Positions 6,303 through 51,128 of a stretch of 64,000 nt of DNA are shown one piece after another (position 1 is the first letter of the stretch; the number at the start of each line of letters is the position of its first letter). This DNA comes from Candidatus Latescibacterota bacterium (GTDB taxonomy: Bacteria; Latescibacterota; UBA2968; UBA8231): contig OZ244561.1 in NCBI GenBank assembly GCA_965217585.1, positions 4,896,001 through 4,960,000 of the forward strand. Direction: 5' to 3'. The position numbers and the translations under genes were made by a program. Below the pieces are notes generated by a model that was not told the DNA's origin, did no database searches, and saw nothing but the letters and a program-made list of their open reading frames with translations.

Positions 6303-6306
6303 AGAC

Positions 6307-9024: not shown

Positions 9025-9025
9025 C

Positions 9026-11077
9026 TCAGTACATCACCGCTACGGTGCACACGGCGGTGATGTCGCCCTGATTCAATCGGGCCCGCACCCGCACTAGGTA
9101 CAGGCCCGGCACCACCAAAGTGCCGTCGTCGTCGAGACCGTCCCAAAAACCCGGGCTGAGCGCAGGGTCTCCTCCGGCTGGAGGGCGCACGTATTGGCCA
9201 CCGCGCAGCGAGCCGGTGTCTAGCTGGCGCACCAAGCGGCCCCCTAGGTCGAGAATGTCCACGTCTATTTCCTGCGGCACACTGACCCGGGAGAGGACGA
9301 ATTCAATGATGGTATGGTCGTTGATATTGTCGCCGTTGGGGGTGAAAACGGGCGGATTTGTCCGCACCTGGTCCAGTATCGGCCCAAACGCGTCGAGCGC
9401 CCGCACACTCCAGGAGTAAGGGGCACCGGTGCTTGGATCAGAGGCGGCGTTCTCCTCGGCGTCGAGTGAGATAGCTGCCTCTGGGCTGAAAAGGCGCGTG
9501 GAAAAGGCGAACTGGTTGGTCAGCAACCGCGCCCTGAAACGCAGTTGCAACTGGCCGGACTGGTGCCAGAGATCGGTCCATACCAACTCCAATGCGTCTC
9601 CCGCAATAGTGGTGCGGGCGATTTCTATCCCCGGGGGTAGCACAATTTCTGCCACCTCGGCTAGGCTCGGCATAGCGATGCGAATGTGCTCCACGCCCAA
9701 ATCGCCCGCGTCGAATTCGACTTCGAGGTGGTAGACGAATTCGGTCTCGCGCCCTACCACCCCCCTGTTGGGTTCCACCCGGACGCGGGCGGCCGAGGCA
9801 GGCGTTTGCTCGGAGAAAGCCATGATCAGACTATCTAGGCGCGGACCGACGTCTTCGAAATCAGTGGAGAAATTAACCCGATATTGCAGCAAGTTTCGCG
9901 GTTCGGGTACCTGCAGAGCGGCTTCTAGGGCGCCAGTCTCAGGACTCCAGTCGCTCCAGTTGACGCCGTCGTTCGAAGTGCGGAACTGCACGCTCAGGGT
10001 GGTGCCTGCGGGCCGCTGGCCGATCCAGCGGAAGTGGTCGTAGATTTTGCGCTGGCCGGGCAAGCCCAAATCCAGCGGCGACGAAGTGAAAGTACCCGCG
10101 GGAGCCACCCCCTGCCCGGTTACCTGAATATCGGCGACGCGGGCCCGCCGCAGTGGATCGAGTTCGATGGCGATCACGCGCAAAAAGCGGCTGAAGGTTG
10201 GCTCAAAGGCAACGGCGGTTTGCGCAAAATCGGCAATGCCGCGAATGGCACCGACTTCACGCCACTGAAAACCGTCGTTGCTGACCTCGACGGCATACCC
10301 CTGCAGGGTGTTGGCGGCAAAATCTTCGGCATTCGTTCCGGCTGTGAAGACCCGCACTTCGCCGAGCAGGCGCTGGATGCCCAGGTCGACACGGGCAAAG
10401 CTGTTGAGCTCGTCGGGTTCGATCGTCCAGATGCTTTCGGCTTGGCCGTCAAATACCTCCGGCCGGTTTGCCGACTGATTAAGTGCTAGGTTTTCGCCCT
10501 CGACCGTGCGCAAGTTCAGTCCGTCGCCGCCCACGTCAATGCCCCCCGGATAGCCGGCAATTACTTCCGCTCCGAGGGGGTCGTCCCAGCCGGAAAGCCT
10601 GTGGCGCTCCAGCCGACCGCGCTGCACCGTTGTCCACGCTGCTATCTCGCTCACATCCGCGGTCAGCCAGTCGGTGCCTTGCTGGGGATCGCCGCTCCAG
10701 CGCCATACCTCCTGCAGACCGCTAGTAGTACTCAGCCACACCTGTTCGCCGGCGACCACTTCGACGACCAGACCACTGCCGTTGCCCTGTCCCCAGTTTT
10801 CCACGCGCACGGCTAGATGGTTAGCGCCGCCTTGCAGTTCGACCGCCAATTCCTCCACGGTCGTCCAGTCGTCATCGCTGCCCACCGAGTCGCCGTTGAG
10901 GAAAACCTCGTATTCATTGACCGCGGTTAGGCGCAACGCGACCTGTGTCGCTGCAGCCGCATTGAAGGTAAGCCGGTAGTAGACGATTTGGTCCCACTGC
11001 GCTATCTGCCACTCGGCCGCAGCCGCGGGCGAGAGCACCGCCAGAACAAAACCCACTACCGATGGCATGACTTTCAT
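9026..11077 (-). CDS. Secreted discoidin/FlgD-Ig domain protein (paralogue of 1474-3576)
   Basis: 683 aa, signal peptide, LRLTAVNEYEVFLNG, FTPNGDNIND, WDGLDDDG..VVPGLYLVRV. Confidence 0.8.
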   Translation of the reverse strand: MKVMPSVVGFVLAVLSPAAAAEWQIAQWDQIVYYRLTFNAAAATQVALRLTAVNEYEVFLNGDSVGSDDDWTTVEELAVELQGGANHLAVRVENWGQGNGSGLVVEVVAGEQVWLSTTSGLQEVWRWSGDPQQGTDWLTADVSEIAAWTTVQRGRLERHRLSGWDDPLGAEVIAGYPGGIDVGGDGLNLRTVEGENLALNQSANRPEVFDGQAESIWTIEPDELNSFARVDLGIQRLLGEVRVFTAGTNAEDFAANTLQGYAVEVSNDGFQWREVGAIRGIADFAQTAVAFEPTFSRFLRVIAIELDPLRRARVADIQVTGQGVAPAGTFTSSPLDLGLPGQRKIYDHFRWIGQRPAGTTLSVQFRTSNDGVNWSDWSPETGALEAALQVPEPRNLLQYRVNFSTDFEDVGPRLDSLIMAFSEQTPASAARVRVEPNRGVVGRETEFVYHLEVEFDAGDLGVEHIRIAMPSLAEVAEIVLPPGIEIARTTIAGDALELVWTDLWHQSGQLQLRFRARLLTNQFAFSTRLFSPEAAISLDAEENAASDPSTGAPYSWSVRALDAFGPILDQVRTNPPVFTPNGDNINDHTIIEFVLSRVSVPQEIDVDILDLGGRLVRQLDTGSLRGGQYVRPPAGGDPALSPGFWDGLDDDGTLVVPGLYLVRVRARLNQGDITAVCTVAVMY

Positions 11078-11094
11078 TGCTCAGCTATTGCTCG

Positions 11095-11541
11095 CTATGC
11101 TCCCGACTCGAAGTCGAGGCTTACAGTGATGGCTTTGGTAATCGGATTGACCACCAGACGGTGATATTGGCCGAAGGGCTTCCAGCGCTTTGAGCCGTTT
11201 CCCCAGACGTGTTCCGGCTCTTGCTCCGGCACTGACAGGCCAATGCGCCGCAGTGCTTTCGTCGTATCAAAGGGGTCCATCTTTTTGAATGTATAGGTCA
11301 CGTAAGACGCGCTGCCATGTATCAAATCCACGTAAACCCAGGTGCTATCTCCATCCGCATCTCTCCACTGCAGAGTGGTTACTTTCTCGGAGCGCGCAAA
11401 GTCGAAATCCGGCTCGCCTAGGCGCTCCTTCAGGGTTGCTCCGGTTTTGTTCAATATCTGGTGCACAGCGAGCAGCGGCACTTCTTCCCGGCCGCAAGCG
11501 GCGATAAAAAAGAAAGTTGCAAAGAATATGCTGGAGTGCAC
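11095..11541 (-). CDS. Hypothetical lipoprotein
   Basis: 148 aa, lipobox-like IAAC, overlaps the upstream gene's stop. Confidence 0.65.
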   Translation of the reverse strand: MHSSIFFATFFFIAACGREEVPLLAVHQILNKTGATLKERLGEPDFDFARSEKVTTLQWRDADGDSTWVYVDLIHGSASYVTYTFKKMDPFDTTKALRRIGLSVPEQEPEHVWGNGSKRWKPFGQYHRLVVNPITKAITVSLDFESGA

Positions 11542-12776
11542 TATTCCACCTTGAAAGTGAAGGGATACGTCACGAATACAGGCAGTGGCGTCAATCGGGG
11601 TGCTGTGGCCCGCGCTCCGGGACCGCGCGCATTCTCTTCACTCGTTGCGCCAGCTGCCGGTTTTTGCAGTGCCCCTATATCAATGGGTCGGAAAGCCCAC
11701 CGCATAATCTCTTGTTGCATGCACTGGCCCACGGCTTGGCTACCCACACTCGAGTTGGTGACCTTGGCCTCGGAAACGGCTCCGCCTACCTCAATGGTGA
11801 AGCGCATGGTCACTGCGCCTGCGGTGGCCTCTCCTTTGTCGAATGCTGCGACGAAGCAGCGGTTGAGACCCGACAAACGCTGCCGCACCACGGCCCGAAT
11901 GGCACTCAGGCTGCGGGTGCGCTCACCGGGCAGGTTGCCCATGATCCGGCTGGGGCCATTCTCGGAAATCATCAATGTTTCGGCGGTTTTGCCGCTGATT
12001 GCTCCCTTTTGCACGACGCGATCTTCCACTTTGTGTTTAAAGACAAAGCGCAGATCCCGCTTTTCCACGGGTTTGTCAAAAACCCCGAAACGCAAGACGA
12101 AGTCCTTCAAGGTCAGCACTACCTCCTCGGTTTCGGGATAAACCGGATCGAAGACGATAAAACCGCCGTAATTCTCGCCCTTAAATATGGGCTGGCCCTC
12201 CTCGTAGTTATAGCTGCGTACCATGCCCATGCGCAGTTCGAAGCGATAGAACTCGTTGCCGCTCTGGCCCCGCTGCGAGCGGTAGTAGTTTTCGAAATTA
12301 CCATAGGGCGACGACGAGGTGATGCCATAGGCGCGCAGGAACTGGCCTTGGTCGGTCTGCACTACGGCTGCCAATGGGTCGAGCATGACTTTGGGCAGAG
12401 TGCGGTTGAAAATAGTGACCTTGAAAACGGTGAAGCGGTTGGGCGTATATCCTAGGCGTGTATCGATCCAGTCGCCGTAGGTGTAGGGATTGGTCGAGTA
12501 CTTGCTGCGCCCCGATTCGTCGGGGAAGAGGGCGTTGAGCTTGGCGTCGGTCATGTGCTCTACCTCGAGGCGCATCCCGGCCAGTTCCCAAGAGATCGCG
12601 CCATTCTCCTGCAGACTATAGGCCCCTTCCGTTTCCGCGGACTCGATGACCGGCAACAGCAGAGTCTCGCGCTTGACGGCCGTGGGAAAGAGAAAACAGC
12701 CTGATAGCAGACCGCACAGCGCAACGACCCAGATCAGCCGGCCGTGTCCCACCGCGCTATTACCCTCTTTACTCAT
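11541..12776 (-). CDS. Lipoprotein with C-terminal TonB-C-like (AgmX/PglI) domain
   Basis: Lipobox LSGC; C-terminal LNRCF...GAVTMRFTI..GAVSEAKV..SSV....VGQCM....RWAF...VTYPFTF. Confidence 0.75.
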   Translation of the reverse strand: MSKEGNSAVGHGRLIWVVALCGLLSGCFLFPTAVKRETLLLPVIESAETEGAYSLQENGAISWELAGMRLEVEHMTDAKLNALFPDESGRSKYSTNPYTYGDWIDTRLGYTPNRFTVFKVTIFNRTLPKVMLDPLAAVVQTDQGQFLRAYGITSSSPYGNFENYYRSQRGQSGNEFYRFELRMGMVRSYNYEEGQPIFKGENYGGFIVFDPVYPETEEVVLTLKDFVLRFGVFDKPVEKRDLRFVFKHKVEDRVVQKGAISGKTAETLMISENGPSRIMGNLPGERTRSLSAIRAVVRQRLSGLNRCFVAAFDKGEATAGAVTMRFTIEVGGAVSEAKVTNSSVGSQAVGQCMQQEIMRWAFRPIDIGALQKPAAGATSEENARGPGARATAPRLTPLPVFVTYPFTFKVE

Positions 12777-13996
12777 TGGTTCTGCTCCGTGTAGAAATCG
12801 ATCTGTTGCTGGGCAATGGAGCCTTGCTGAGTCAGGGCGAACACCACTAGGTTGACGCCCATTTGTAGCTGTGGCTCGTTGCGGAATTCCTTTTCCCAGG
12901 CGCGTCCATATTCCTTGGTCGTGAAGATTGCCACCAGGCGCTCGCCGAGAAAAATACCTTCCAAAAAGGGCACCTCGGGATGAAAATCGCGGCCGAATAC
13001 GAGCCTATCCTGAGTCCGTTTTGGCGGCGGGCCATCGTCGAAGTCGTAAAAGCTGTGGTATATGGGGTGGTCGTTGGGGATGACTTTGAAGCGCGCATCC
13101 CGCCCCAGCGAAGCCTTGAGCATTTCCCGCAGCGAGGCTTCGGCCGGGGTGTACTCGGTGGCGGCATCCCGCCCCAACTCGCTCATGGCCTCGACCATGA
13201 CAAAGCCACCCTGCCGCAAATAGTCACCCAGATTGGCGATCTCCTGCTGGGTGGGTTCGAAGGCTTGATCGACGGAGATGTACACGAAGGGCGCCCGGAA
13301 GATAGCGCGCGAATCGAGGAAGAGATGGTCGTCCACTCCGGCCCGAATCTGGGTAAATCCATTAATCGCTTCGACCAGCTCGAAGATGGCCCGCTGGGTT
13401 GACGGTTTGAAGTCGTTGCCCCAGGCTAGGGCTAGGTAAACGAAGCCGGTGATGTTCTGTTTGTCGGTCGGATCCTGGACCACCAGTCCCTTATAGCGGC
13501 CGATATCCAGCGCTTCCAAGTCGAGGAATTCCTCCTGCATGCTGATGCGCTTCTCCGGCTCTTTGGGGCTCTTGATGGCGACGCGCTGCACTTTGGGCTG
13601 GACCACTTCTAAGCCTAGGTCCGCACCGCTTGCAACGCCGAAGCGGAAGGTCTTGATTTTGCCGACTAGGTCGGGGAGGCGAATCTGGGGTTTGCGGGTG
13701 ATTTGCGGCTTGGCCGCCCGCACCTGGCGGGTCATCTGCCGTTTGGGGATTTGCCGTTTCTCAAACTCAAAGGCTTTGGTCATGCGCGGCTTGCGCACCA
13801 CTAGGTGCATCAGCGGGGGTTTGGGAGCTTTTTTTTCTTCTTCCCTGGTAGCTAGGTAGATTGTGGGTATGGCCAACAGAGCAATCGCTATCGCCAGCGC
13901 CCGGTAGAGTACCCTGCGCTGGCGGCGCAGTAATTCCTCCAAACGGAGCGCGTCCGTCGGCGTGGCGAAGCGTTTGGCATCGATTTGAGCGGCCAT
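12773..13996 (-). CDS. DUF4159-domain protein with N-terminal membrane anchor and Lys/Pro-rich linker
   Basis: NLGDYLRQGGFV, DHPIYHSFYDF, MGVNLVVFAL; start placed at ATG 13996 after GGGG. Confidence 0.8.
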   Translation of the reverse strand: MAAQIDAKRFATPTDALRLEELLRRQRRVLYRALAIAIALLAIPTIYLATREEEKKAPKPPLMHLVVRKPRMTKAFEFEKRQIPKRQMTRQVRAAKPQITRKPQIRLPDLVGKIKTFRFGVASGADLGLEVVQPKVQRVAIKSPKEPEKRISMQEEFLDLEALDIGRYKGLVVQDPTDKQNITGFVYLALAWGNDFKPSTQRAIFELVEAINGFTQIRAGVDDHLFLDSRAIFRAPFVYISVDQAFEPTQQEIANLGDYLRQGGFVMVEAMSELGRDAATEYTPAEASLREMLKASLGRDARFKVIPNDHPIYHSFYDFDDGPPPKRTQDRLVFGRDFHPEVPFLEGIFLGERLVAIFTTKEYGRAWEKEFRNEPQLQMGVNLVVFALTQQGSIAQQQIDFYTEQNQ

Positions 13997-14003
13997 GGTA
14001 CCC

Positions 14004-17000
14004 CTATAAGCGGTTGGCTTCGATCCACTCTTTGTGCATGCGGGCAAAGCGATGGGCTTCGGCCTGTTCGTCGGTTAGGCGACTGAGGACTTGGTCGTAA
14101 ACCTGCACCGCGTCCTTCCACTGCCCCAATGACTCGTAGCAGACCCCCATATTGCTCAGCGCTCCGATCTCGCTTTCGGTGCCGGGATAGTCGCGCGCGA
14201 CTTCCGCAAAGCCGGCTGCCGCCCGGCGGAACTGGGCCGGGTTCTGCTCTTCAAGGGCTTGGGCAAAGACCGCCTCGACTTCGGCGTAGCGCAGGTAAGC
14301 CACTACTTCGCGCAGGTCATCTATTAATTCGGGAACCTTTTGCGCCACCGGACTGCTGGGAAAGCGGCGGATGACTTCTTGGTAGGCCTGCAGGGCTTTA
14401 TCGTATTCCTTCTCATTGTAGTAAAAGTCGCCGATGGTGAACTGGGCATTGGCCGCCAGAGCACTGCCCGGGTAGTCGGCAACCACGCTTTGCAAGGCGG
14501 CGATGGCTTGGGACTCCCGTTTCATATTGAGATGAGACCAGGCCAGATTGTAGAGGGCATCGTCGGCCAGATCCGCTTGCGGGTGCATTTCGAGCAATTG
14601 CTGGTAATGCGCTTGCGCCGTCTCGAATTGTCCCAAGTTGTAATGGGCTTCCCCGGCCCTGAACAGTGCGTCGGGTGCCAACTCGCTTTGGGGATAGGCG
14701 CTGGCTAGGTCGGCAAAGGCGGCAGCGGCTTGCTCGAACTGAGTCAGGTTGAAATGGGCGTATCCCAGATAGTAGAGGGCGTAGGGGCGGTTGCGATGAT
14801 CGGGCGTTTTCTGCAGATAAGTTTCGAGCACTCGCACGGTTCCCCCGAGATCGTCCCGCTCGAATAGGGCCTGCCCCAGAGCAAAGCGCATATCGGCCGA
14901 ATAATAGGAGTCCGGGTAGCGGGACAGTGCCTTTTGGTAGGTGTTGATTAGTGCCTGGGTATCACCCCGTGAGGCGTGGGCGTCGCCCATTAGGAAGTAG
15001 GCTTTCTCTTGGAGGAAATAGGGTTGCTCACCGCGCAGAGCGGGCAAGTCCAAGGAGAGAATCCGCCGGCATACGGCCTCAACTTGGTCGAATTCATTCA
15101 GGTTGTAGTGAAGTTCGGCCAGCACCACTAGGTGTTCGGCGCGCTCGACTGAATCGGTTGCCGCCGCTACTAGGGCCCGGTAGTCCTCGATGGCTTCTTC
15201 GTCCCGCCCTAATTCGAGATGGGCCAGACCAAGCATGCGCTGGGCCGCCCCTGCCAACTCCTCGTTGTCGCTGTGCAGTAGTGCTTTTAGGTCGGCTGTC
15301 GCCTCCTGATAGCGCTTGAGCTTGAGCAGGCTTACGCCGCGGCCGTAGAGGGCACCCCGGCGCACCTCGTCGTCGTCGGCCAGTTCGATGGTGCGTCCCA
15401 GTGCTTCCACCGCGGCGCCGAATGTCTCCGTTTCGATCAGGGTGCGCCCTTTCATGTAGTGGAGACGGGCCTGTTCGTTTTTAGCTATACTGACCTCCAA
15501 GCCCGCCTCCAGCGCCTCCAACGCCCCCGAGAAATCGCCCTCCGCAGCCAGCAGGTTGCTCGTTTCGAGCATGGCCTTGGAAAACAAATTCGAAGTGCGG
15601 TCAAGCTGTCGGAATAGCTCCACTGCCCTGCCGGGCTGGCCCAAATCCCGGTAGCACAGAGCCAGTTCGAAACGGGCCCCGTGGCGCTGCGGGGACTCGG
15701 AGTATTTTTGTAGAATGGATTCGTAAGCGGCGATGGCCCGCTTGAAGTTTTCTTGCTGGTAGTGGATGCGGCCCAGTTGGAAAAGAGCGCTGCGTACGTA
15801 GTCGGGGTCTTGGTCGGCGTCGACGATCTCTTGATAGAGCTCCAGCGCCTGGACAGTATGCTCAGCACTGCCCAGAGTGCCGAGCATTTGGTTGCACAGG
15901 GCGATATTAAATGGGGTAGCAGCTAGGGATAGTTCGCTGCTGGGGTAGTCGGCGGCAATGCGTTCGTACGCGGCGATCGCCTGTGCATAGGCCAATCGGG
16001 CGTCGTCGGCCGCGGCTTGGCGCTGAACCTCAGCCCGCTCGTAATGGGCCCGCCCGATCTTGTAAAGGGCCCAGGGCGGTGCCAGACCAGCGGCTTTGGC
16101 CACATCCCCGTACGCATCTAGGTAGAGTTGATATTCGGCGATGGCGCGTTGATAGTTGCCAAGGCCGTAGTAGTGTTCGGCCAGCAGGGATTGCATGCTG
16201 GCCTGAAAAATGCGGTTGCGGCTACCGTCGATGGCCTCGCGGTAGGTGCGCACTGCCGCTTGGTCGTCGCCGCCTTGGGTGTACATATCGGCTAGGCGGA
16301 TATAGGCCTCGGCCACCAGTTTCTGTTCCTGAGCGAAGGCGGTTATAACCTTGCTATAGGCGGTAGCGGCACCGGCAAAATCCCCGCTTTGGGCGCGGCA
16401 ATCGCCTATCTTGATCTGGGCTTTGGCCGCCAATTCTAGCGCAGTCTCGTCTACTAGGCCGGCTATTTTCTCACGCCGCATCTTCAGCAGGTCGCGCTCG
16501 CTGAGGTGGTCGATGTCTTGGCGGTCTACCACTTCCTGGTACCAGAAAGTGGCCTGATCGTAGCGCTGCTGCAGAAAGTAGGCTTCGCCGATTTGGAAAA
16601 GCGCCCGGTCTGCGCGGTACCCTTTGGGGAAGTGCCGCCCCAATTCCTCAAAGGCGGTGATGCTTTCCCGGTACTGCCCCAATTCAAAATGGGCCCAGCC
16701 GATATTGTAGAGGGCGTTGTCGAGGTATTGGCTGTCGGGATATTTCTGCACAAAAGCCCGGCCCTCTGCTATGGTGCGCTGGTAATCGCCGCTTGCATAG
16801 AGGCAGTTGACTAGCCGATTGCGGGCCAGTTCCCGCATCTGCGGAGAGGTGGTCTGGGCTTCGGTCTTGAGGAAGTAGGCACCCGCTTCCACGAAGTCGG
16901 TCGCGGTCCGTTCGGCGAGTTGGCGTTGGCGTTCGGGGTCGCGTGCCCGGGCGGCGCGGCGCTGGGATTCCTGGGCGCGCTTAAAGTAGCTATTACCCGT

Positions 17001-17249
17001 CTGGTAGAGGGCGATTTCTTTGATCGGGGCCGCAACCTCGCCGACCGCGGCCTTGATCTCCGCTGTGTAGAGCAGCGGGCTTTCAATGGCATTGATGCGC
17101 TCGTAGGTTGCGATGGCTTGCTCGTAGTCCTCGGCGGCGTAGAATTTCTGTGCCTGCTTAAAAGAAGCTTGTATTTCGTCCGGGGTCGGTACGAAGTACG
17201 AGCCTACTACTAGACCCAGCAAAGTACCTACAATGAGCAGCGGTGTCAT
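14004..17249 (-). CDS. Large multi-TPR periplasmic protein (BamD/YbgF-type repeats)
   Basis: Many YP.S...ALY..G TPR repeats, N-terminal hydrophobic segment; GAGAGG SD before ATG 17249. Confidence 0.9.
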   Translation of the reverse strand: MTPLLIVGTLLGLVVGSYFVPTPDEIQASFKQAQKFYAAEDYEQAIATYERINAIESPLLYTAEIKAAVGEVAAPIKEIALYQTGNSYFKRAQESQRRAARARDPERQRQLAERTATDFVEAGAYFLKTEAQTTSPQMRELARNRLVNCLYASGDYQRTIAEGRAFVQKYPDSQYLDNALYNIGWAHFELGQYRESITAFEELGRHFPKGYRADRALFQIGEAYFLQQRYDQATFWYQEVVDRQDIDHLSERDLLKMRREKIAGLVDETALELAAKAQIKIGDCRAQSGDFAGAATAYSKVITAFAQEQKLVAEAYIRLADMYTQGGDDQAAVRTYREAIDGSRNRIFQASMQSLLAEHYYGLGNYQRAIAEYQLYLDAYGDVAKAAGLAPPWALYKIGRAHYERAEVQRQAAADDARLAYAQAIAAYERIAADYPSSELSLAATPFNIALCNQMLGTLGSAEHTVQALELYQEIVDADQDPDYVRSALFQLGRIHYQQENFKRAIAAYESILQKYSESPQRHGARFELALCYRDLGQPGRAVELFRQLDRTSNLFSKAMLETSNLLAAEGDFSGALEALEAGLEVSIAKNEQARLHYMKGRTLIETETFGAAVEALGRTIELADDDEVRRGALYGRGVSLLKLKRYQEATADLKALLHSDNEELAGAAQRMLGLAHLELGRDEEAIEDYRALVAAATDSVERAEHLVVLAELHYNLNEFDQVEAVCRRILSLDLPALRGEQPYFLQEKAYFLMGDAHASRGDTQALINTYQKALSRYPDSYYSADMRFALGQALFERDDLGGTVRVLETYLQKTPDHRNRPYALYYLGYAHFNLTQFEQAAAAFADLASAYPQSELAPDALFRAGEAHYNLGQFETAQAHYQQLLEMHPQADLADDALYNLAWSHLNMKRESQAIAALQSVVADYPGSALAANAQFTIGDFYYNEKEYDKALQAYQEVIRRFPSSPVAQKVPELIDDLREVVAYLRYAEVEAVFAQALEEQNPAQFRRAAAGFAEVARDYPGTESEIGALSNMGVCYESLGQWKDAVQVYDQVLSRLTDEQAEAHRFARMHKEWIEANRL

Positions 17250-17304
17250 AGGACCTCTCAAAGAAAGAGCACACCAGCACACCAAATTCTGCAGATTAGC
17301 CAAA

Positions 17305-17333
17305 ACTGTAAGAAAAGGCTAATGCGGTTGCAA
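17305..17333 (-). promoter_or_regulatory. Putative sigma70 promoter of the TPR operon
   Basis: TTGCAA-17 nt-TACAGT on the minus strand. Confidence 0.4.
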
Positions 17334-17399
17334 GTATTTCTCTATGCGGTTTGGTAACGGGTTTTTTACGCCATGAGAGGAAACGGGGCAGATGTTCCT

Positions 17400-17428
17400 T
17401 TGGCATGTTGCTAGAGGCGAAGTATATT
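17400..17428 (+). promoter_or_regulatory. Putative sigma70 promoter of exbBDD
   Basis: TTGGCA-17 nt-TATATT. Confidence 0.4.
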
Positions 17429-17602
17429 ATCGGCCGTGCGCTGGAGCGGCTAAATTTGCACGGCCCTGCGCGTCCTATTCGAGTCTATGAGCCGCACAAA
17501 CTCATTGCGGGAGGCATGCGTTATGGAAACCCTATTAGCCGGCGGCATCCTGATGATTCCCTTGGGCCTGTGCGCCGTCCTCTCACTAGCATTCATTCTA
17601 GA

Positions 17603-18673
17603 TAGGACTTACGCAGTTGGATAGTTTAGGATAAGATAGAAGCTACTCCCCCTCCGCCGCGAGCCAGTCCGATGAACCCAGCCAAGTGTGCAGACCACGA
17701 CTACATCCACTTCCTGATCGCCGCTCAGTGCGCCTTCAGTTGTACTGAGGCCGCCCGCTGTCATCCTGAAGGGGGCCCTACGCCATCCCATGACGCCTTC
17801 ACGCGCCTGCTCACAAGACAGCCTCCCGATACCGAGGCGTTGTGGCGAGAGACGCAGGGACTGGTCACCCTTCAGGGCGGCGTGTTGGCTCTGGACGATT
17901 CCACCTTGGACAAGCCCTATGCCAAGCGGATCGAACTGGTGACGCGCCATTGGAGCGGCAAACATCACCGGGTGGTCTTGGGCATCAATCTCATAAGTAT
18001 GGTCTGGTCGGACGGCCTCGCTTGCATTCCCTGCGACTTCCGCGTCTATGACAAGCCGATCGGGGGCCACAACAAGAACGAGCACTTCCGGGCGATGCTG
18101 GCCAGTGCCCAAGCGCGCGGCTTTCAGCCCGAGTGCGTGGTGTTCGATAGCTGGTATGCTTCCCTCGACAACCTCAAGCGGATTCGCGCCTACGATTGGT
18201 CTTGGCTGACGCGCCTCAAGGCCAACAGACAGGTCAACCCCGATGGGAGCGGCAACGTGGCGATCGGCTCTGTTGCCATCGAACCGGAAGGCCGGCGGGT
18301 GCATCTCAAGGGCTATGGGTTCATCCAGGTGTTTCGGACGGTCTCGGCAAACGGAGACGCGCAATACTGGGCAACCAACGACCTGGAGATGGCTGTCAGC
18401 CAGTTTGAGGCGTGGTCCAAGCGGGCGTGGTCCATTGAGACCTACCACCGAGGCCTCAAGCAGTGTTGCGGCGTCGAGCAGGCGCAGGTTCGGTCGGCAC
18501 GGGCGCAGATGAACCATATCGCGTTGTCGATTCGCGCCTTCGTGCGGTTGGAGGTGCATAGACTCCAAACCGGTGTCAGTTGGTATGAAGCCAAAAGGAA
18601 CATCATCCGAGAGGCTGTCCGGCTGTATCTGCAACGACCACTGCACAGGCTCAACTCAACTGCGTAAGTCCTA
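17603..18673 (+). mobile_element. IS701-family insertion sequence (1071 bp)
   Basis: Perfect 17-bp terminal IRs TAGGACTTACGCAGTTG (17603-17619; complement 18657-18673) and 5-bp direct repeats CTAGA (17598-17602, 18674-18678). Confidence 0.95.
17672..18667 (+). CDS. IS701-family DDE transposase
   Basis: LALDDSTLDKPY, VVFDSWY, RAWSIETYHRGLKQCCG. Confidence 0.95.
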   Translation: MNPAKCADHDYIHFLIAAQCAFSCTEAARCHPEGGPTPSHDAFTRLLTRQPPDTEALWRETQGLVTLQGGVLALDDSTLDKPYAKRIELVTRHWSGKHHRVVLGINLISMVWSDGLACIPCDFRVYDKPIGGHNKNEHFRAMLASAQARGFQPECVVFDSWYASLDNLKRIRAYDWSWLTRLKANRQVNPDGSGNVAIGSVAIEPEGRRVHLKGYGFIQVFRTVSANGDAQYWATNDLEMAVSQFEAWSKRAWSIETYHRGLKQCCGVEQAQVRSARAQMNHIALSIRAFVRLEVHRLQTGVSWYEAKRNIIREAVRLYLQRPLHRLNSTA

Positions 18674-45892: not shown

Positions 45893-48800
45893 ATGTTATC
45901 GACTCTTTTGCAAATAACAACACCTAACAAAGTCATCGGCTGGACGGCCGTTGTGCTGGGGCTGTTTTGCGGCCAGGTGGCGGCGCAAGCGGCGGCTCGC
46001 GTTGAAGTGCCCATTTTTGAGGGCGGTGCGGGATTGGACTTTTTCTTTTTTGCCGCGCGCGAATACGAAAAGGCCCGTCCCGATGTGCAGGTTGATCTCT
46101 ATGGCGACCCGCGCATCGCCGATAAGGTGCGGGTGCGGATCCTCGAAGGGACGTTCCCGGAAGCCAGCAACGCGGGTCTCAACTACTGGGCGCTGATACG
46201 CAACGGCGAAATCCTGCCTCTCGACGACTATCTGGACGGGCCGAGCTGGGATGGGGACCGGACTTGGCGCGCGTCCTTCCTGCCCGGCAGCCTCGACCGC
46301 TATGAGCACGAGGGCAAGATCTACGGCATTCCCTTCCTCTATTCGGTCTATGCCGTCTGGTACAACAAGAACATGTTCAAAGAGCACGGCTGGGCACCGC
46401 CGCGCACTTGGGACGAGTTTTTCGCCCTCTGCGAGCAAATCCGCGCAACAGGAGTTTGGCCGCTGGCCTTTCAGGGGCGTTATCCAGGCTATATCGGCGG
46501 CGTGACCGACAACGCCTATTATCATCTCGCTGGCCGGACGCGCTTCTACGAGCAGAAGGAGTTGGTGCCGGGCAGTTTCGCCAATCCCGAATACGTGACG
46601 GCGCTCGGGCTTATTCAGCGCACGGCGCAGGAGTACTTCCAGCCCGGTGCCCTCGGCATGAGCCACACTGAGGCGCAGCTCGAGTTTTTCTTGGGGCATA
46701 CCGCGATGGTCTTTTGCGGCTCTTGGCTCAAAAGCGAGATGATGGGCAAAATCCCCGACGGCTTCCGCTTGGGGACGTTTAATTTGCCCGTGGTCGAGGG
46801 CGGAGCCGGCGAACCCGGTGCCATCTATACTGGTGCCGGGTATTACTTTGTCTTCAGTGTGAGCTTAAAGTCGCTCATGTCCAGTGAAAACAAGAACTTG
46901 CAGTCTTGTTTTCTTCATTAGTATGCAGATGAATCTCCACATCCCCTTGCGTCCTGAGTAATTGGGAGGTCTGAAACAGGGATGGAAAAGCCTAATGTCC
47001 AACGAAACTACTATCGTGGGACAGGGCAAGGAGAAGTGAGAAAGGGTGAACGGAAGTGAATCTGTATAGGCTTCGTAACGATTAACCGCCGAAACAGTAG
47101 TTGATTACGGCGGACGGGCTAAGAAATCGGCTGCGTCTCAGGCCGATGAAGGTCAAACGTGCTGAAGAGCGTTTGACTGGCATACCAAGGCCCCGGAGTA
47201 TTTGCAGGCACCCGACCCTCACGTTTCTGGCATGTGCGGAAAAGCGGAACACCATTGAGGTCTGTGGGAAACAGAAGATAAAAAGATGCCCAGATTGAAC
47301 AAAAAAAGAGGCAGGGGTGTTGACAATGACATCCCCCACCTCTCTTGCTGTTTAACTGAAAGAGGTCCCGGAACCTTGATTAATTTGAGTGGTCATAGCA
47401 CTCAAATTCAAGTTACCCGTGAGCCTGTAGGAGATGGGTTGATTTCTCAAAAACCCCATCAACTCCACTCGTTGATTAAACGGAGTAGAACTACTTATTC
47501 ATCCTCCTCCTCTTGGTCATCATCCAAGAGGGATTGGGCGGCTAACGTAGCTCCAACTCCAATAGCGAGCGGAATACCTACGGCAGCAATAAGCGGTATC
47601 GAGAGAGCCTTTCCTATAAAAGGTATCCCGACTATTGCAATATTGCCCAAGGACATAAAAAATCCTCCTCTGACAGTAAAAGCTGGTGGATAAAAGTGGC
47701 GAAAGGACGGCCTTCGCCACACCCGCCAACTGAGAACGAAGGACAAGAACGACCATACGGTCAGACTTGTCAAGTTCTTGACAGCTTCAATCTCTGGCTC
47801 TTTTGATAACTCTCTGACTACCATAGTAACCCAACCGCAAGGGAGGCTGAATCCCTCAGTGGTAACAGGATGTCCCAAGATGCGAAAGCCCGCAGCCGAA
47901 AGGCACCGGAAATACATAACCGGCGGGATAGGGCAATACCCAACGCGAAAGCGTGCGGACGTGGGACAGGTGAAACCGTCCATAAGGTTGCAGAAGTAAC
48001 CTTGAATCAGAAAGGAGACGCGCAGATGGGATACCCGAGCGATCCACTGAAACTAACTCGATGGAACGACATTGACTGGTTCAACACCATCGACGCAGTT
48101 AAAGGCTTACGACAGCAAATCTTCAGGGCGTCTAAGTCAGGAGACAAGAGGAAACTCAAGTCTCTGCAACGACTGATGTTGAAAAGCAAGGCCAATGCCG
48201 CTGTCAGTGTCCGGCAGGCCACGCAAGTCAACAAAGGTCGGGGAACACCGGGAACCGACGACCGTATTGCTCTGACCGGCGAGTTGAGAACTGAGTTGAT
48301 GCACGAAATACTGAGCATTGACGACTGGACTCCACAGCCAGCCAGAAGGGTCAACATCCCGAAGGCCAATGGCAAAACCAGACCATTAGGCATTCCAGCT
48401 ATTGCCGACCGCTGCAAGCAGGCGATGGTGAAGAATGCGCTTGAACCCCAATGGGAAGCCCGGTTTGAACCCTGTTCATATGGGTTCAGGCCGAGCCGAT
48501 CCTGCCATGATGCGATTGGCCGCATTTTTCGCGTAGCCCTCCCACACGGAAATAAAAAGTGGGTGGTCGATGCGGATATAAAGGGAGCCTTCGACAACAT
48601 CAGCCACGAACACCTATTAGACCAGTTGCAGGGTTTTCCAGAACTCGGACTGATTGAAAAGTGGCTCAGAGCTGGTGTGATGATAGAGGGCATCTTTCAG
48701 GAGACAGTAATGGGAACCCCGCAAGGGGGTGTTATCAGCCCGCTACTGCTCAACGTAGCTTTGCATGGAATGGAGGATGCGGTAGGGGTGCGTTACCAGC

Positions 48801-51128
48801 AGCACGGGAAATACACCCAACTGATAAGCAACGTGGCTCTAATCCGATATGCAGATGACTTCGTTATCTTCGCTACTACTAAGGAAGAAGCCGAATCATC
48901 GAAAGACCGCATAGACGATTGGCTCAAGGACAGAGGGCTGGAACTCTCGCAAGAGAAAACCAGTATCCGAAATCTGCGAGAAGGGTTTGACTTTTTGGGT
49001 TTCAACATCAAGGAATACCAGAAAGCAAGCACTGGAAAAGTCAAATTGTTCATCAGGCCCAGTCAGGATGCAGTCGCGCGATTTCAGGACAGGTTACGGC
49101 AGGAATGGACCAATCTACGGGGCCAAAATGCCGATACTGTAATGAGCAGACTTAATCCGATTCTTAGAGGTTGGGGAAACTACTATAAGCATGTAGTCTC
49201 ATCGCGCATCTTCAGCAAGATGGATGACTTCAACTACTGGAGAAGCCGTAGGTGGATGAATAAGACCCACCCGAAAAAGAGCGATGACTGGAAAACAAAC
49301 CGCTACCACCAAGTGCAAACCAAGCCGGGCTTAGTCAAAAGATTCGGGAATGTCGAAACAGGGCAATATCTCTTTCGATTGACTGACCTTCGGATTGATA
49401 GGCACATCCTAATCCGGCATGGAGCATCACCGGATGACCCAGAGATACGGAACTACTGGAAGAAAAGGGAGAAGCGGAAAACGGAACTCCTACCAAGTGC
49501 CAAGCATGAGGCATTGGCCCAACTGCAAGAGGGCGTGTGTGCCGAGTGCATGGGGAGCTTATACGGAGATGAAAAACTGGAAATTCATCACTGTATCCCA
49601 AAAGGTCAAAGTGGGAGGGACAAGCTCGTTAATCTCCGATTGGTTCACCGTATTTGCCATGAGCAAATAAGTTCCAAAACACTTAGAGGCGAAACGGTTT
49701 GCTTGAGCCGTGTGCGGTGAAAGTCGCACGCACGGTTCTGAGGGGGGCGGAGGCTGGCGACAGTCTCCGCCTACCCGACAAAACAGCGCCCACCCCGAGT
49801 TGGGCGTGGATTTTTTGCGCTTTATGACCTCGCGGGAGATGGCCGGCACCTTCGCCGAGATGCGCGATGTTTTGGTGGCCGTCGATGGGGCGATGGAAGG
49901 GCGGACCAGCGAGGATTTGCAGGATTTGGTGGAATTGGCGCAGCAGGCTTCTACGGCCTATGGCACCGCTCCGGGCGAGGGCTTCCCGGAGATGGACCAG
50001 TTCCTCAACGATGTGCGTTTCAAGATCGTCAATGGGCAGCTAACGCCGGAGGAGGGGGCCAGAGAGCTGGAGTCGGCGGCTGAGGCGGTGCGCAACCGCA
50101 GCCAGCACCCAGATCAGATTACCATCCGCCATCTGTGGAAACCTGCGCTGCTGTTGGGCCTTTTGGCGTTGGCGATGGGCTATTGGTTGTACACGACGGC
50201 GCGGCAGTGGCGCGCGAGGCAGGTCGGCCAAGCGCCACGGCCTACTAGCACCGTGCGTTTGAAGTGGGCTGGGGTGGTGTTCTTCGTCGGGCCGGCGGCG
50301 GCGTTCTACACGCTCTTCGTGGTGGTGCCCAGCATCAAGTCCTTCTTCTGGAGCGCGATGCGCTGGGACGGGCTGACGGAGATGGTCTTTGTCGGGCTGT
50401 TGCACTTCCAGCGGCTGCTTTTTGAGAGCGACGAGTTCTGGATCGCGCTGTCGAACAATCTCTTCATCATGTTCATCATCCCGCTCTGCGTGTTGCCGCT
50501 AGCGCTTTTTCTGGCGGTGTGCATCAGCCGCGAGGTCGTCGGGGCTAAGCTCTTCCGCATCGTCTTTTTCTTTCCCAACATTCTCGGCGGGGTCGCGGCG
50601 ACGCTGCTGTGGATGCACCTATACAATCCACAGGGCGGGCCGATCAACACGGTGTTGGTAGCCTTGGGATTGGAGGGGTTTGAAGGCTTTGCTTGGCTGG
50701 CGCAGGACAATCTCTACTGGGCGCTGATACCCATGTCGATCTGGGGTGCGGCCGGGTTCAATATGGTGCTGTTTTTGGCGGCGATGGAGAGTATTCCGCA
50801 GAGCATGTACGAGGCGGCTGACATCGACGGGGCCTCGGCTTGGCGGCAGTTTTGGTCGATTACGGTGCCGCTGATTTGGGAGGTGCTGTCGATAGCGATC
50901 GTGTTTATGATCATCGGCGGGATGAAGGCGTTTGAGGTGATTTGGCTGTTGACCAATCAGCGGCCGACGACTGACAACCACGTGATCGGCACGCGGATGG
51001 TGCAGGCGATGTTTACTGAGTTCAAGGTGGGGGAGGCGACCGCGATTGCAGTGTTGCTCTTTTTGATCGTGTTCTTTGGCACTACCGCGACCTTGCGCGC
51101 GATGAAGCGCGAAGCTGTGGAGTTTTGA
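45893..51128 (+). CDS. Fused solute-binding protein and carbohydrate ABC permease, split by an intron (join 45893-46856, 49780-51128; 770 aa)
   Basis: Splicing restores YYFVF-K-NSAHPELGVDFLRF in frame; C-terminal permease with MYEAADIDGAS. Confidence 0.9.
47301..47343 (-). terminator. Rho-independent terminator on the antisense strand inside intron domain II
   Basis: Minus strand AGAGGTGGGGGATGT..ACACCCCTGCCTCTTTTTTT; G-U pairs form only on this strand. Confidence 0.7.
47495..47656 (-). CDS. 53-aa hydrophobic peptide with acidic tail, antisense within the intron
   Basis: AGAGGAGG-7 nt-ATG; MSLGNIAIVGIPFIGKALSIPLIAAVGIPLAIGVGATLAAQSLLDDDQEEEDE. Confidence 0.65.
   Translation of the reverse strand: MSLGNIAIVGIPFIGKALSIPLIAAVGIPLAIGVGATLAAQSLLDDDQEEEDE
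48026..49720 (+). CDS. ltrA: Group II intron reverse transcriptase/maturase with HNH endonuclease
   Basis: AAGGAG SD; IPKANGKTRPLGIP, YGFRP, DADIKGAFD, GTPQGGVISP, RYADD, GWGNYY, C..C..EIHH..NLRLVH..CH. Confidence 0.97.
   Translation: MGYPSDPLKLTRWNDIDWFNTIDAVKGLRQQIFRASKSGDKRKLKSLQRLMLKSKANAAVSVRQATQVNKGRGTPGTDDRIALTGELRTELMHEILSIDDWTPQPARRVNIPKANGKTRPLGIPAIADRCKQAMVKNALEPQWEARFEPCSYGFRPSRSCHDAIGRIFRVALPHGNKKWVVDADIKGAFDNISHEHLLDQLQGFPELGLIEKWLRAGVMIEGIFQETVMGTPQGGVISPLLLNVALHGMEDAVGVRYQQHGKYTQLISNVALIRYADDFVIFATTKEEAESSKDRIDDWLKDRGLELSQEKTSIRNLREGFDFLGFNIKEYQKASTGKVKLFIRPSQDAVARFQDRLRQEWTNLRGQNADTVMSRLNPILRGWGNYYKHVVSSRIFSKMDDFNYWRSRRWMNKTHPKKSDDWKTNRYHQVQTKPGLVKRFGNVETGQYLFRLTDLRIDRHILIRHGASPDDPEIRNYWKKREKRKTELLPSAKHEALAQLQEGVCAECMGSLYGDEKLEIHHCIPKGQSGRDKLVNLRLVHRICHEQISSKTLRGETVCLSRVR

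Follow-up and report, generated by a model that had tools for sequence, protein, structure and literature searches.

The stretch of DNA analysed here, referred to throughout as the window, comprises 64,000 nucleotides (nt) from a Candidatus Latescibacterota bacterium (assembly GCA_965217585.1, contig OZ244561.1, positions 4,896,001 to 4,960,000 of the forward strand), and contains a group II intron that is likely to carry, within domain II (DII) of its ribozyme, a small gene on the opposite strand. The complete intron occupies 46857–49779 (+), measures 2,923 nt from GTGTG to AC, and is delimited by its Rfam match, by junctions in assembled contigs and by the continuity of the exon frame. Its first bases, GTGTG at 46857, and its last, GAC at 49779, agree with the conserved ends of group II introns (5' GUGYG and 3' AY). 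Over the whole window only one Rfam family was matched, that of group II intron domains V and VI (DV/DVI; 49703–49779, +), with RF00029 scoring 69.3 bits against a gathering score of 40 and being covered over model positions 1–77 of 77. When the 2,923 nt are removed in silico, the exons read as one open frame of 770 codons within an ABC-transporter solute-binding-protein gene, the 5' exon (45893–46856, +) matching SBP_bac_1 (Pfam PF01547, E = 5.2e-21) and the 3' exon (49780–51128, +), in continuous frame, matching the BPD_transp_1 permease domain (Pfam PF00528, E = 3.9e-10). The intron-free host gene thus specifies 770 aa, the solute-binding domain coming first and the ABC permease domain second, and represents either a fusion or two genes overlapping in frame. 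A candidate exon-binding site 1 (EBS1), TGAAGA at intron position 307 (window 47163–47168), is complementary to the terminal bases of the 5' exon, TCTTCA, the candidate intron-binding site 1 (IBS1).

The intron-encoded protein, P0003 (564 aa), is specified by an open frame in domain IV (DIV; 48026–49720, +) and contains the Pfam domains RVT_N, RVT_1, GIIM and HNH. It scores 357.8 bits with the NCBIfam group II reverse transcriptase (RT)/maturase equivalog TIGR04416 (cut-off 300), and its closest solved chain is 6me0_C (E = 5.6e-108, residues 11–551). Because the nearest solved relative is the 6me0 maturase RT, the intron is suggested to belong to the TeI4h type of the chloroplast-like (CL) IIB class, a placement made by RT similarity alone. 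A cyanobacterial host was considered and rejected, no Photo_RC having been found. Intron and insert are each single-copy in their own genome (7.32 Mb, one contig), which holds in addition a separate DV/DVI fragment. The latter (C1:3437316–3437393, −; RF00029 48.8 bits; loci L002, L063 and L087) is 93% identical over 70 nt to the DV/DVI of the window, is preceded by neither an RT open reading frame (ORF) nor other ribozyme parts, and is a 3' fragment of an intron. To judge from its sequence, the intron of the window is intact and probably still active.

Of the six-domain fold, the closing stem of domain I (DI), DII, domain III (DIII), DV/DVI and the EBS1 candidate can be seen in this intron. 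DI (46857–47250, +), assigned from sequence, from the EBS1 candidate and from blastn and nhmmer similarity to the DI of relatives, is closed by 46872–46884/47227–47238 with one mismatch and one bulge; DIII, of ordinary size (47871–47968, +), is closed by TGTCCCA (47871–47877) and TGGGACA (47962–47968), and its sub-terminal loop is the second cargo site, used in the copies G012, G029b and L090 described below. At the base of DII, ACCATTGAGG (47251–47260, +) pairs with CCTCAGTGGT (47854–47863, +) over 10 bp, including one U·G. This basal stem closes the minimum-energy fold of the region and is kept in an RNAalifold consensus of nine related copies, three of which show an A-U to G-C double change at one pair; the pairing exceeds chance. 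The layout of DII in this lineage is a basal stem with two hairpins, DIIa and DIIb, the second having a GNRA loop. DIIb (47827–47853, +; GCAA tetraloop) is ordinary here and, by alignment and consensus fold, kept in all relatives. The extra DNA, about 560 nt (about 47265–47824), lies in the terminal loop of the DIIa sub-hairpin, and is regarded as an insertion because nine copies from the same genus have a DIIa of 10–55 nt. In the minimum-energy fold of the sense strand, 47262–47299 (+) pairs with 47786–47826 (+), giving an interrupted DIIa stalk of ~30 bp that would keep the cassette clear of the ribozyme core. An earlier note on this DNA, made from the letters alone, had described a normally folding intron with a DII of ~610 nt. 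The DI, DII and DIII pairings that it named were all found, normal folding holds for the parts that are checkable (the DI closing stem, DII, DIII and DV/DVI), and the base of DII shows covariation; the long DII is real as well, but the insert itself amounts to only ~560 nt and is confined to the DIIa sub-domain.

On the minus strand, the insert holds a gene cassette of 486 nt (47300–47785, −) that is absent from the nine short-DII relatives and single-copy in its own genome. Near its upstream end lies a −35-like TTGACA box (47768–47773, −), recognized by sequence and accompanied in the window copy by a poor −10, and its leader contains a 10-bp hairpin followed by UUUU (47696–47720, −), which was picked up by a terminator scan, folds with −15.6 kcal/mol, and is terminator- or attenuator-like, standing 25 nt upstream of a Shine-Dalgarno (SD) sequence. 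The SD, AGAGGAGG (47664–47671, −), is paired in the predicted mRNA fold and lies 7 nt before the ATG at 47656 of a 53-aa ORF, P0001 (47495–47656, −), for which the evidence is its translation and the protein homologues treated below. A hairpin-rich 3' untranslated region (UTR; 47344–47494, −), taken from the fold of the predicted mRNA, leads to an intrinsic terminator (47301–47343, −) supported both by fold energies and by a home-made scan, which consists of a hairpin (47343–47308) and a U7 run (47307–47301). Folding of the terminator hairpin gives −24.4 kcal/mol on the minus strand and −17.9 kcal/mol on the plus strand, a difference of 6.5 kcal/mol that arises because two G·U pairs turn into mismatches on the latter. 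The minus-strand SD, ATG, 53-aa ORF, hairpin and U7 had all been read correctly in the earlier note, as had the fact that the G·U pairs of the terminator form on that strand only. Since the TTGACA box (47773–47768) and the U7 run sit just inside the two strands of the stalk, the insert equals one promoter-to-terminator unit mounted on a stem. Neither a sense promoter nor a separate small RNA gene was seen in a scan of 46700–48200.

P0001 is hydrophobic over about residues 5–40, with a core rich in Gly and Pro, and ends in an acidic tail; its net charge is −7. Its best 19-aa hydropathy window reaches 2.14, and an AlphaFold2 (AF2) model based on a 3-sequence alignment predicts, at low confidence, one helix at residues 13–52 (predicted local distance difference test, pLDDT, 63.6). 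The protein was already recorded as a called protein, and two homologues exist among about 15 billion proteins, which were covered by word-indexed searching in 5.8 billion clusters together with a complete HMMER run across 1.84 billion representatives: P0004 (54 aa) is 80% identical to P0001, and P0005 (67 aa) is 54% identical over residues 6–44, with E = 4.4e-6 for the whole library. When the three are aligned, they agree in 22 columns, which hold mainly G, P, K and A, and the core is free of gaps; the core differences between P0001 and P0004 are mostly exchanges among I, L, V and F, and the termini of P0005 differ. Such a pattern would fit purifying selection on a membrane helix and would be hard to obtain from non-coding drift, and the ORF is probably coding because two protein homologues exist. 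P0004, P0005 and P0009 all derive from European Nucleotide Archive (ENA) assemblies; alignment-based pattern scans for the P0001 family in metagenome contigs of the Joint Genome Institute (JGI), in GTDB representative genomes and in IMG/VR found none, and searching all 31 genus genomes in six frames brought up nothing beyond chance-level matches (E >= 0.069).

Opposite P0001 runs a 135-aa sense ORF, P0002 (47286–47693, +), which overlaps the antisense gene in its entirety together with its 3' UTR, spans the terminator and the UTR hairpins, and has neither an SD nor a family. Recognition values in the Atlas, which are weak evidence, stand at 2241 for P0001 versus 1048 for P0002, and no Atlas match exceeded 0.79 for P0001 or 0.83 for P0002; these count as leads only. 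P0002 is probably an open "shadow" frame opposite a coding region.

The 5' 1,169 nt of the intron were searched against 60 related genomes, 30 of them other members of the same genus and 30 from outside it. Matches, restricted to ribozyme parts, were obtained in 8 of the 30 other same-genus genomes and in none of the 30 outside, and the part of the query equal to 47265–47824, that is, the insert, had no match in any of the 60. With 90 nt of DV/DVI as the query, 18 places were matched, spread over 12 of the 31 genus genomes. Structural anchors were then sought in 16 loci together with the window copy; both the DII and the DIII anchors were located in 12 of these 17 copies, and the remaining five, too diverged or fragmentary, were left out of the counts. 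In the comparison of relatives with and without the insert for which the earlier note had called, nine related same-genus copies with a short DIIa of about 10–55 nt lack this insert, and G028a, G012 and G029b carry unrelated antisense-ORF inserts. Large inserts are present in 5 of the 12 assessable copies, and in four of the 12 they occupy the DIIa or the DIII loop (420–565 nt): the DIIa loop holds about 560–565 nt in the window copy and in G028a, and DII is short in G012 and G029b, where the DIII sub-terminal loop measures ~420–430 nt versus 1–10 nt in others.

All four of these DIIa and DIII inserts show the same order of parts on the antisense strand, namely a leader of ~100–215 nt, an SD, a small ORF, hairpins, and a G+C-rich hairpin with a U-run. 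The SD is of the GGAGG type except in G029b (AAGGA), and in each predicted cassette mRNA it is paired in the minimum-energy fold (4/4); the 7-mer ACTTGAC occurs upstream of the ORF in three of the four cassettes. The G028a cassette is built in the same manner as that of the window, as a unit on a stem of paired ends. The encoded peptides are P0001 (53 aa, window), P0007 (30 aa), P0008 (27 aa) and P0006 (81 aa, G029b), and the last has an 81-aa homologue with 70% identity and no gaps. A common origin of the four cassettes was rejected on chance-level local alignment scores: compared pairwise, the inserts score 17–22, against a shuffle mean of ~20 and a shuffle maximum of 27–31. The antisense fold is lower in energy than the sense fold in all four inserts, with 17–20 versus 6–14 G·U pairs, although this strand comparison is not decisive. 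An open RT frame together with all ribozyme landmarks is found in the window copy and in G012 (559 aa, GTG start). The G028a and G029b inserts have no further copy in the 31 genus genomes, except for a repeat of 76 nt.

Further observations concern individual sisters. The 76-nt repeat is a palindromic element (L058:1504–1582, contig 28 of G028) situated in the 3' UTR of the G028a cassette; copies 87–100% identical to it occur in both orientations, at several positions, in G028, G013, G002, G014 and G020, and it looks like a small dispersed repeat of the repetitive extragenic palindromic (REP) or miniature inverted-repeat transposable element (MITE) kind. The same antisense 3' UTR (L058) contains two tandem hairpin repeats of ~37 nt beyond the end of the 30-aa ORF. 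In the ORF-less sister intron G029a, DI is enlarged by a ~650-nt insert of 58% GC (L069:~3240–3893), in which no antisense SD-led ORF was found and a sense 22-aa ORF stands behind a strong AAGGAG SD.

Beyond the genus, a single-protein RT scan of genome contigs gave no matches, and the search was carried by an alignment of five RTs. From JGI metagenomes, the best 80 of 559 relatives were taken (41–59% identity), and nhmmer profiles of the intron 5' end and of the DII-3'/DIII region made 55 of these 80 loci measurable. The distance from the intron 5' end to the RT start is 580–758 nt in 53 of the 55, versus 1,169 nt in the window. One of the two outliers, L090 (930 nt), has a DIII-loop insert of ~330 nt (L090:2030–2365) with an antisense, SD-led 66-aa ORF, P0011, whose product ends in a C-terminal hydrophobic segment; it is a weak fifth case of an antisense ORF. 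The other, L105 (855 nt), has a GC-rich DII extension of ~250 nt (L105:~395–640) that contains no ORF. Smaller DIII expansions, of about 120–140 nt, were seen in L120, L135 and L149. Five loci were recovered from IMG/VR with the five-RT alignment, and their 5' end-to-RT distances are about 590–680 nt by coordinate arithmetic. In a profile search of 168 genomes of the phylum, this RT lineage was high-scoring only in the genus. From the loop counts in the genus and in the metagenomes, loaded copies are common in the genus lineage (4–5 of 12) and rare elsewhere (1–2 of 60 measured). Among the large DIIa- and DIII-loop inserts, the four of the genus and that of L090, the only gene-like SD-led ORF of at least 25 aa is antisense in every case (5/5), which fits the view that a terminator in the sense direction is not tolerated. 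As a separate matter, one genome of another genus in the same family, G131, holds eight near-equal copies of a different group II intron RT (seven at 288 bits and one at 287.4; loci L179, L185 and L187–L192), which suggests a local intron burst.

The site itself could be followed in contigs from four public runs of one study (X1–X4); a further 19 runs, three of them metatranscriptomes, matched with a share of 0.06. In all four, contigs cover the whole intron with its insert and list no differences inside 47251–47863; in each, moreover, there is one contig in which 46856 is followed immediately by 49780, so that 2,923 nt with GT..AC ends are absent, with the caveat that the sides of this joint are just 19–30 nt long. 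The joined, intron-less form has a depth of 12.8–30.5 versus 11.1–19.2 for the intron. Contig records of up to 92 kb suggest that the runs are DNA metagenomes, and if so, filled and empty alleles of the exact site of the window coexist in the community; if the runs are RNA, the 46856|49780 joint would be spliced mRNA. Either reading fixes the intron boundaries and argues that the loaded intron is functional now or was so recently. Two further features of these runs lie outside the insert: X1 and X4 show a second joint, 48867/49706, which skips 838 nt from within the RT ORF to the start of DV and is either a ΔORF variant or a chimera with another intron, and in all of X1–X4 the bin 49696–49802 (DV/DVI) reaches a depth of 3,680–18,466 versus 11–19 across the rest of the intron, the segment therefore being common to many related introns in the community.

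These results make it likely that the insert of the window is a real antisense passenger gene, and the intron lineage appears to ferry such genes. The earlier note had put forward an antisense cargo gene without suggesting a function for its peptide; the claim gains support from the short-DIIa relatives, from the unrelated antisense cassettes in sister introns, and from the peptide homologues of P0001 and of the G029b ORF. We tentatively favour, at somewhat less than an even chance, a more specific reading: an intact CL-type intron whose antisense passenger gene most likely encodes a type-I-toxin-like membrane peptide. If the passenger gene is granted to be real, the chance that its role is that of a toxin or addiction factor is about even, perhaps slightly better.

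Under the favoured reading, the cassette would lie against the intron so that its own intrinsic terminator could stop neither the intron nor the host transcript, and the antisense orientation would have been selected because a terminator in the sense direction would abort both the intron and the host operon. The paired ends of the cassette would form a stalk of ~30 bp that prolongs DIIa and still lets the ribozyme core fold, and the stalk and the dense local hairpins together may keep the insert from disturbing ribozyme folding. Transcription would start from a weak promoter of the cassette itself or come from antisense transcription upstream, giving a structured mRNA of about 440 nt in which the SD is sequestered; its product would be a 53-aa peptide that spans the membrane once and ends in an acidic tail. 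As to function, one may guess at a type-I-toxin-like module whose natural antisense partner is the complementary intron or pre-mRNA; by geometry, this RNA is fully complementary to the whole cassette mRNA and could for that reason be the antitoxin. Such a module might help the intron to be kept, or act to the detriment of cells in which it is silenced or lost.

Type I toxin-antitoxin modules such as hok/sok and fst/RNAII pair a small hydrophobic peptide with a long, structured mRNA whose SD is occluded and with an overlapping complementary RNA; they ride selfish elements, and their families are very narrow and fast-evolving. The toxin-like reading draws on the corresponding features here, namely a short single-helix peptide with a charged tail, a structured mRNA with a paired SD, narrow families and a selfish carrier. 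P0001 fits the class of small (<~60 aa), hydrophobic, membrane-targeted peptides to which type I toxins belong, by its length, its hydropathy and its one helix predicted at low confidence. The cassette differs from hok/sok and fst/RNAII in having no known toxin family and in its acidic tail, and whereas the antitoxin of type I systems is an overlapping antisense RNA, here the intron itself would be the complementary RNA. A bolder extension, in which the intron lineage as a whole is a vehicle for interchangeable antisense addiction cassettes, with intron RNA as the antitoxin and post-segregational killing by a retrotransposon, so that cells deleting or silencing the element would die or be slowed, is unlikely.

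Several findings weigh against the favoured reading. Regarding the peptides, Pfam and NCBIfam searches with P0001 up to E = 1 brought up none of the described type I toxin families (Hok, Fst, Ldr, Ibs, TisB and others), and with its acidic tail and its net charge of −7 it departs from most toxins of this type; the other cargo peptides matched no such family in Pfam or PADLOC (E <= 1) or in PHROGs or NCBIfam (E <= 0.1), none of the peptides reached the cut-off of any family in these four libraries, and P0011 of L090 had no homologue but itself and no obvious terminator. Regarding expression, a scan of both strands of 46700–48200 for the sigma-70 consensus gave 0 promoter-like sites, and the run contigs, apparently DNA, carry neither strand nor expression information. 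Paired SDs are common for purine-rich motifs in minimum-energy folds. The insert of the window is over-structured on both strands (z = −8.95, plus; −9.65, minus), so that structure alone cannot name the functional strand, and over-structuring is about equal on the two strands of all four inserts (z from −6.4 to −13.5, sense, and from −7.2 to −10.2, antisense; 30 mononucleotide shuffles each). A home-made and crude detector of the SD–ORF–terminator order, not used as support, flagged two of the five real antisense strands (window copy and G012) and missed those of G028a, G029b and L090; it also responded to 4–16 dinucleotide shuffles in 100 and to the insert's sense strand in the window. The architecture of a single cassette is consequently not statistically compelling. 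Finally, G028a is ORF-less, with no RT, and G029b is without its first ~60 nt; as two of the four carriers are thus ORF-less or truncated, cargo may accumulate partly in decaying copies.

Among the alternatives, the one that survives best, although it is still rather improbable, is that the antisense gene is real cargo of a different kind, encoding a small membrane protein (an accessory subunit or a stress peptide) useful to the host or to the intron. The anatomy and conservation on which the toxin reading draws serve this explanation equally well, and the acidic tail and Gly/Pro-rich helix of P0001, unlike classic type I toxins, speak for it, as does the great difference among the four cargo peptides. 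A weak NCBIfam match to the tail of "MFS transporter small subunit" would point the same way, but it is sub-threshold (17 bits, cut-off 24) and covers 14 residues. Moreover, no partner gene is linked to the cassette, and each peptide is unique to one intron copy and found nowhere else in the 31 genus genomes; such single-copy occurrence is seldom seen in useful accessory proteins, whereas selfish modules typically show it.

It is less probable again that the insert is an RNA-level expansion of a length-tolerant peripheral hairpin, with the minus-strand ORF, SD and terminator fortuitous or never expressed. DIIa does vary in length, spanning about 10–55 nt even in the "short" copies, and there is no ORF in the ~250-nt DII extension of L105 and no antisense ORF in the ~650-nt DI insert of G029a. 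To this may be added that over-structuring of the insert is no weaker on its sense strand (z = −13.5) than on its antisense strand (−10.2), that an SD–ORF–terminator unit arises in 4–16% of shuffles, and that no consensus promoter was found in 46700–48200. Against such an expansion, two homologues keep the P0001 ORF open and, although their termini differ and identity falls to 54%, preserve its pattern of Gly, Pro and Lys, and a second cargo ORF, P0006, is conserved at 70% without gaps. The antisense orientation of the ORF-bearing large inserts (5/5), the greater stability of the terminator on the minus strand by 6.5 kcal/mol, and the position of the −35 box and U7 just inside the strands of the stalk, which makes the insert one transcription unit, likewise stand against it.

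Very improbable is the accidental nesting in the intron of a foreign element, either MITE-like or a piece picked up through recombination, that is neutral or disabling there, the intron itself heading to decay: the ends of the insert do form an imperfect inverted repeat of about 25–30 nt, the 76-nt palindromic dispersed repeat did land within the G028a cassette, and two of the four carriers are non-autonomous or truncated, but the insert is single-copy in a 7.3-Mb genome and has no match among 60 related genomes, it shows no target-site duplication, transposase or internal DV, all inserts are precisely in DIIa or DIII terminal loops with the helices preserved, the RT ORF and all ribozyme landmarks of the window copy are intact, and loaded and empty alleles of the exact site occur at comparable depth in the same metagenomes, which points to recent gain, or to splicing, of the loaded intron. 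Three more defined candidates were rejected. A nested MITE or insertion sequence (IS) conflicts with the single copy in the own genome and the lack of a match in 60 relatives, and neither a transposase ORF nor a target-site duplication is visible at the insert. A twintron is contradicted by the only RF00029 match of the window being 49703–49779, a permissive scan of 46800–48100 having given one chance-level match (E = 0.32). An intron with a LAGLIDADG-type ORF outside DIV does not apply, since the ORF of the window is antisense, 53 aa long and without a Pfam domain.

The antisense passenger gene may be compared with several known systems. In the chloroplast-like IIB introns TeI4/TeI3 of Thermosynechococcus elongatus, ORF deletions in DIVb, twintrons and an IS insertion have been described, and some of these introns are derivatives that have no ORF and are mobilised in trans (Mohr et al., 2010, PMC2882425). 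The window lineage resembles them in that its nearest solved RT is that of 6me0, with the same set of RVT_N, RT, X and HNH domains, and in its mixture of ORF-containing copies and ORF-less derivatives, the latter possibly trans-mobilised. It departs from the T. elongatus account, as far as the available part of that paper goes (PMC2882425), in having gene cassettes in DII or DIII on the opposite strand. In LAGLIDADG-encoding group II introns, according to the main text of the report on them, the ORF sits in DIII or DIB and has been gained repeatedly and independently (PMC13190283). These introns are thus akin to the present ones in holding a foreign ORF in a peripheral loop (DIII, DIB) of a conserved ribozyme scaffold; the main text presents their ORFs as homing endonucleases that serve mobility, mostly in organelles (PMC13190283), in contrast to the tiny predicted membrane peptides found here, which have their own SD and terminator and lie on the opposite strand of RT-keeping bacterial introns. 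The words "antisense" and "opposite" are absent from that main text (PMC13190283).

Engineered targetrons carry artificial sense cargo in DIVb, and, in the portions of the reports available, this cargo is stated to lower insertion efficiency (PMC8524655, PMC3898094). They too use the group II intron as a vehicle and place extra genes in a loop that the ribozyme tolerates; in the window lineage, natural cargo lies antisense within DIIa or DIII. Group IIC-attC introns have internal promoters that, by the accessible account, face outward into downstream integron cassettes (PMC3001079), and they likewise drive non-intron sequence from an internal promoter but contain no gene within the intron by that account. 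In integrons, toxin-antitoxin cassettes adjoin introns and are not described inside them in the available part of the source (PMC7923331). A search of full-text literature, in which subscription journals are mostly uncovered and supplements unseen, retrieved no opposite-strand gene in DII or DIII of a group II intron and no intron-internal toxin gene. The suggestion of the earlier note that the arrangement might be undescribed is in keeping with this, no description of an antisense gene in DII or DIII having been found.

To our knowledge, natural group II introns carry only mobility genes, that is, an RT/maturase and occasionally a homing endonuclease; natural passenger genes, if confirmed, would change this view of their gene content and constitute a new route for the spread of small genes. 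It would also follow that the DIIa and DIII loops, beyond DIV, tolerate about 0.5 kb of foreign sequence, which would be directly useful to targetron design, where cargo in DIV lowers efficiency. Should the peptides prove to be toxins, they would provide a first example of a retroelement whose own RNA serves as antitoxin. The arrangement is of interest to the retroelement, small-protein and targetron fields alike, and it comes with a natural experiment: within a single genus, one intron lineage is represented by copies that are loaded, empty, ORF-less or truncated, and the source community offers filled and empty alleles of the very site occupied in the window.

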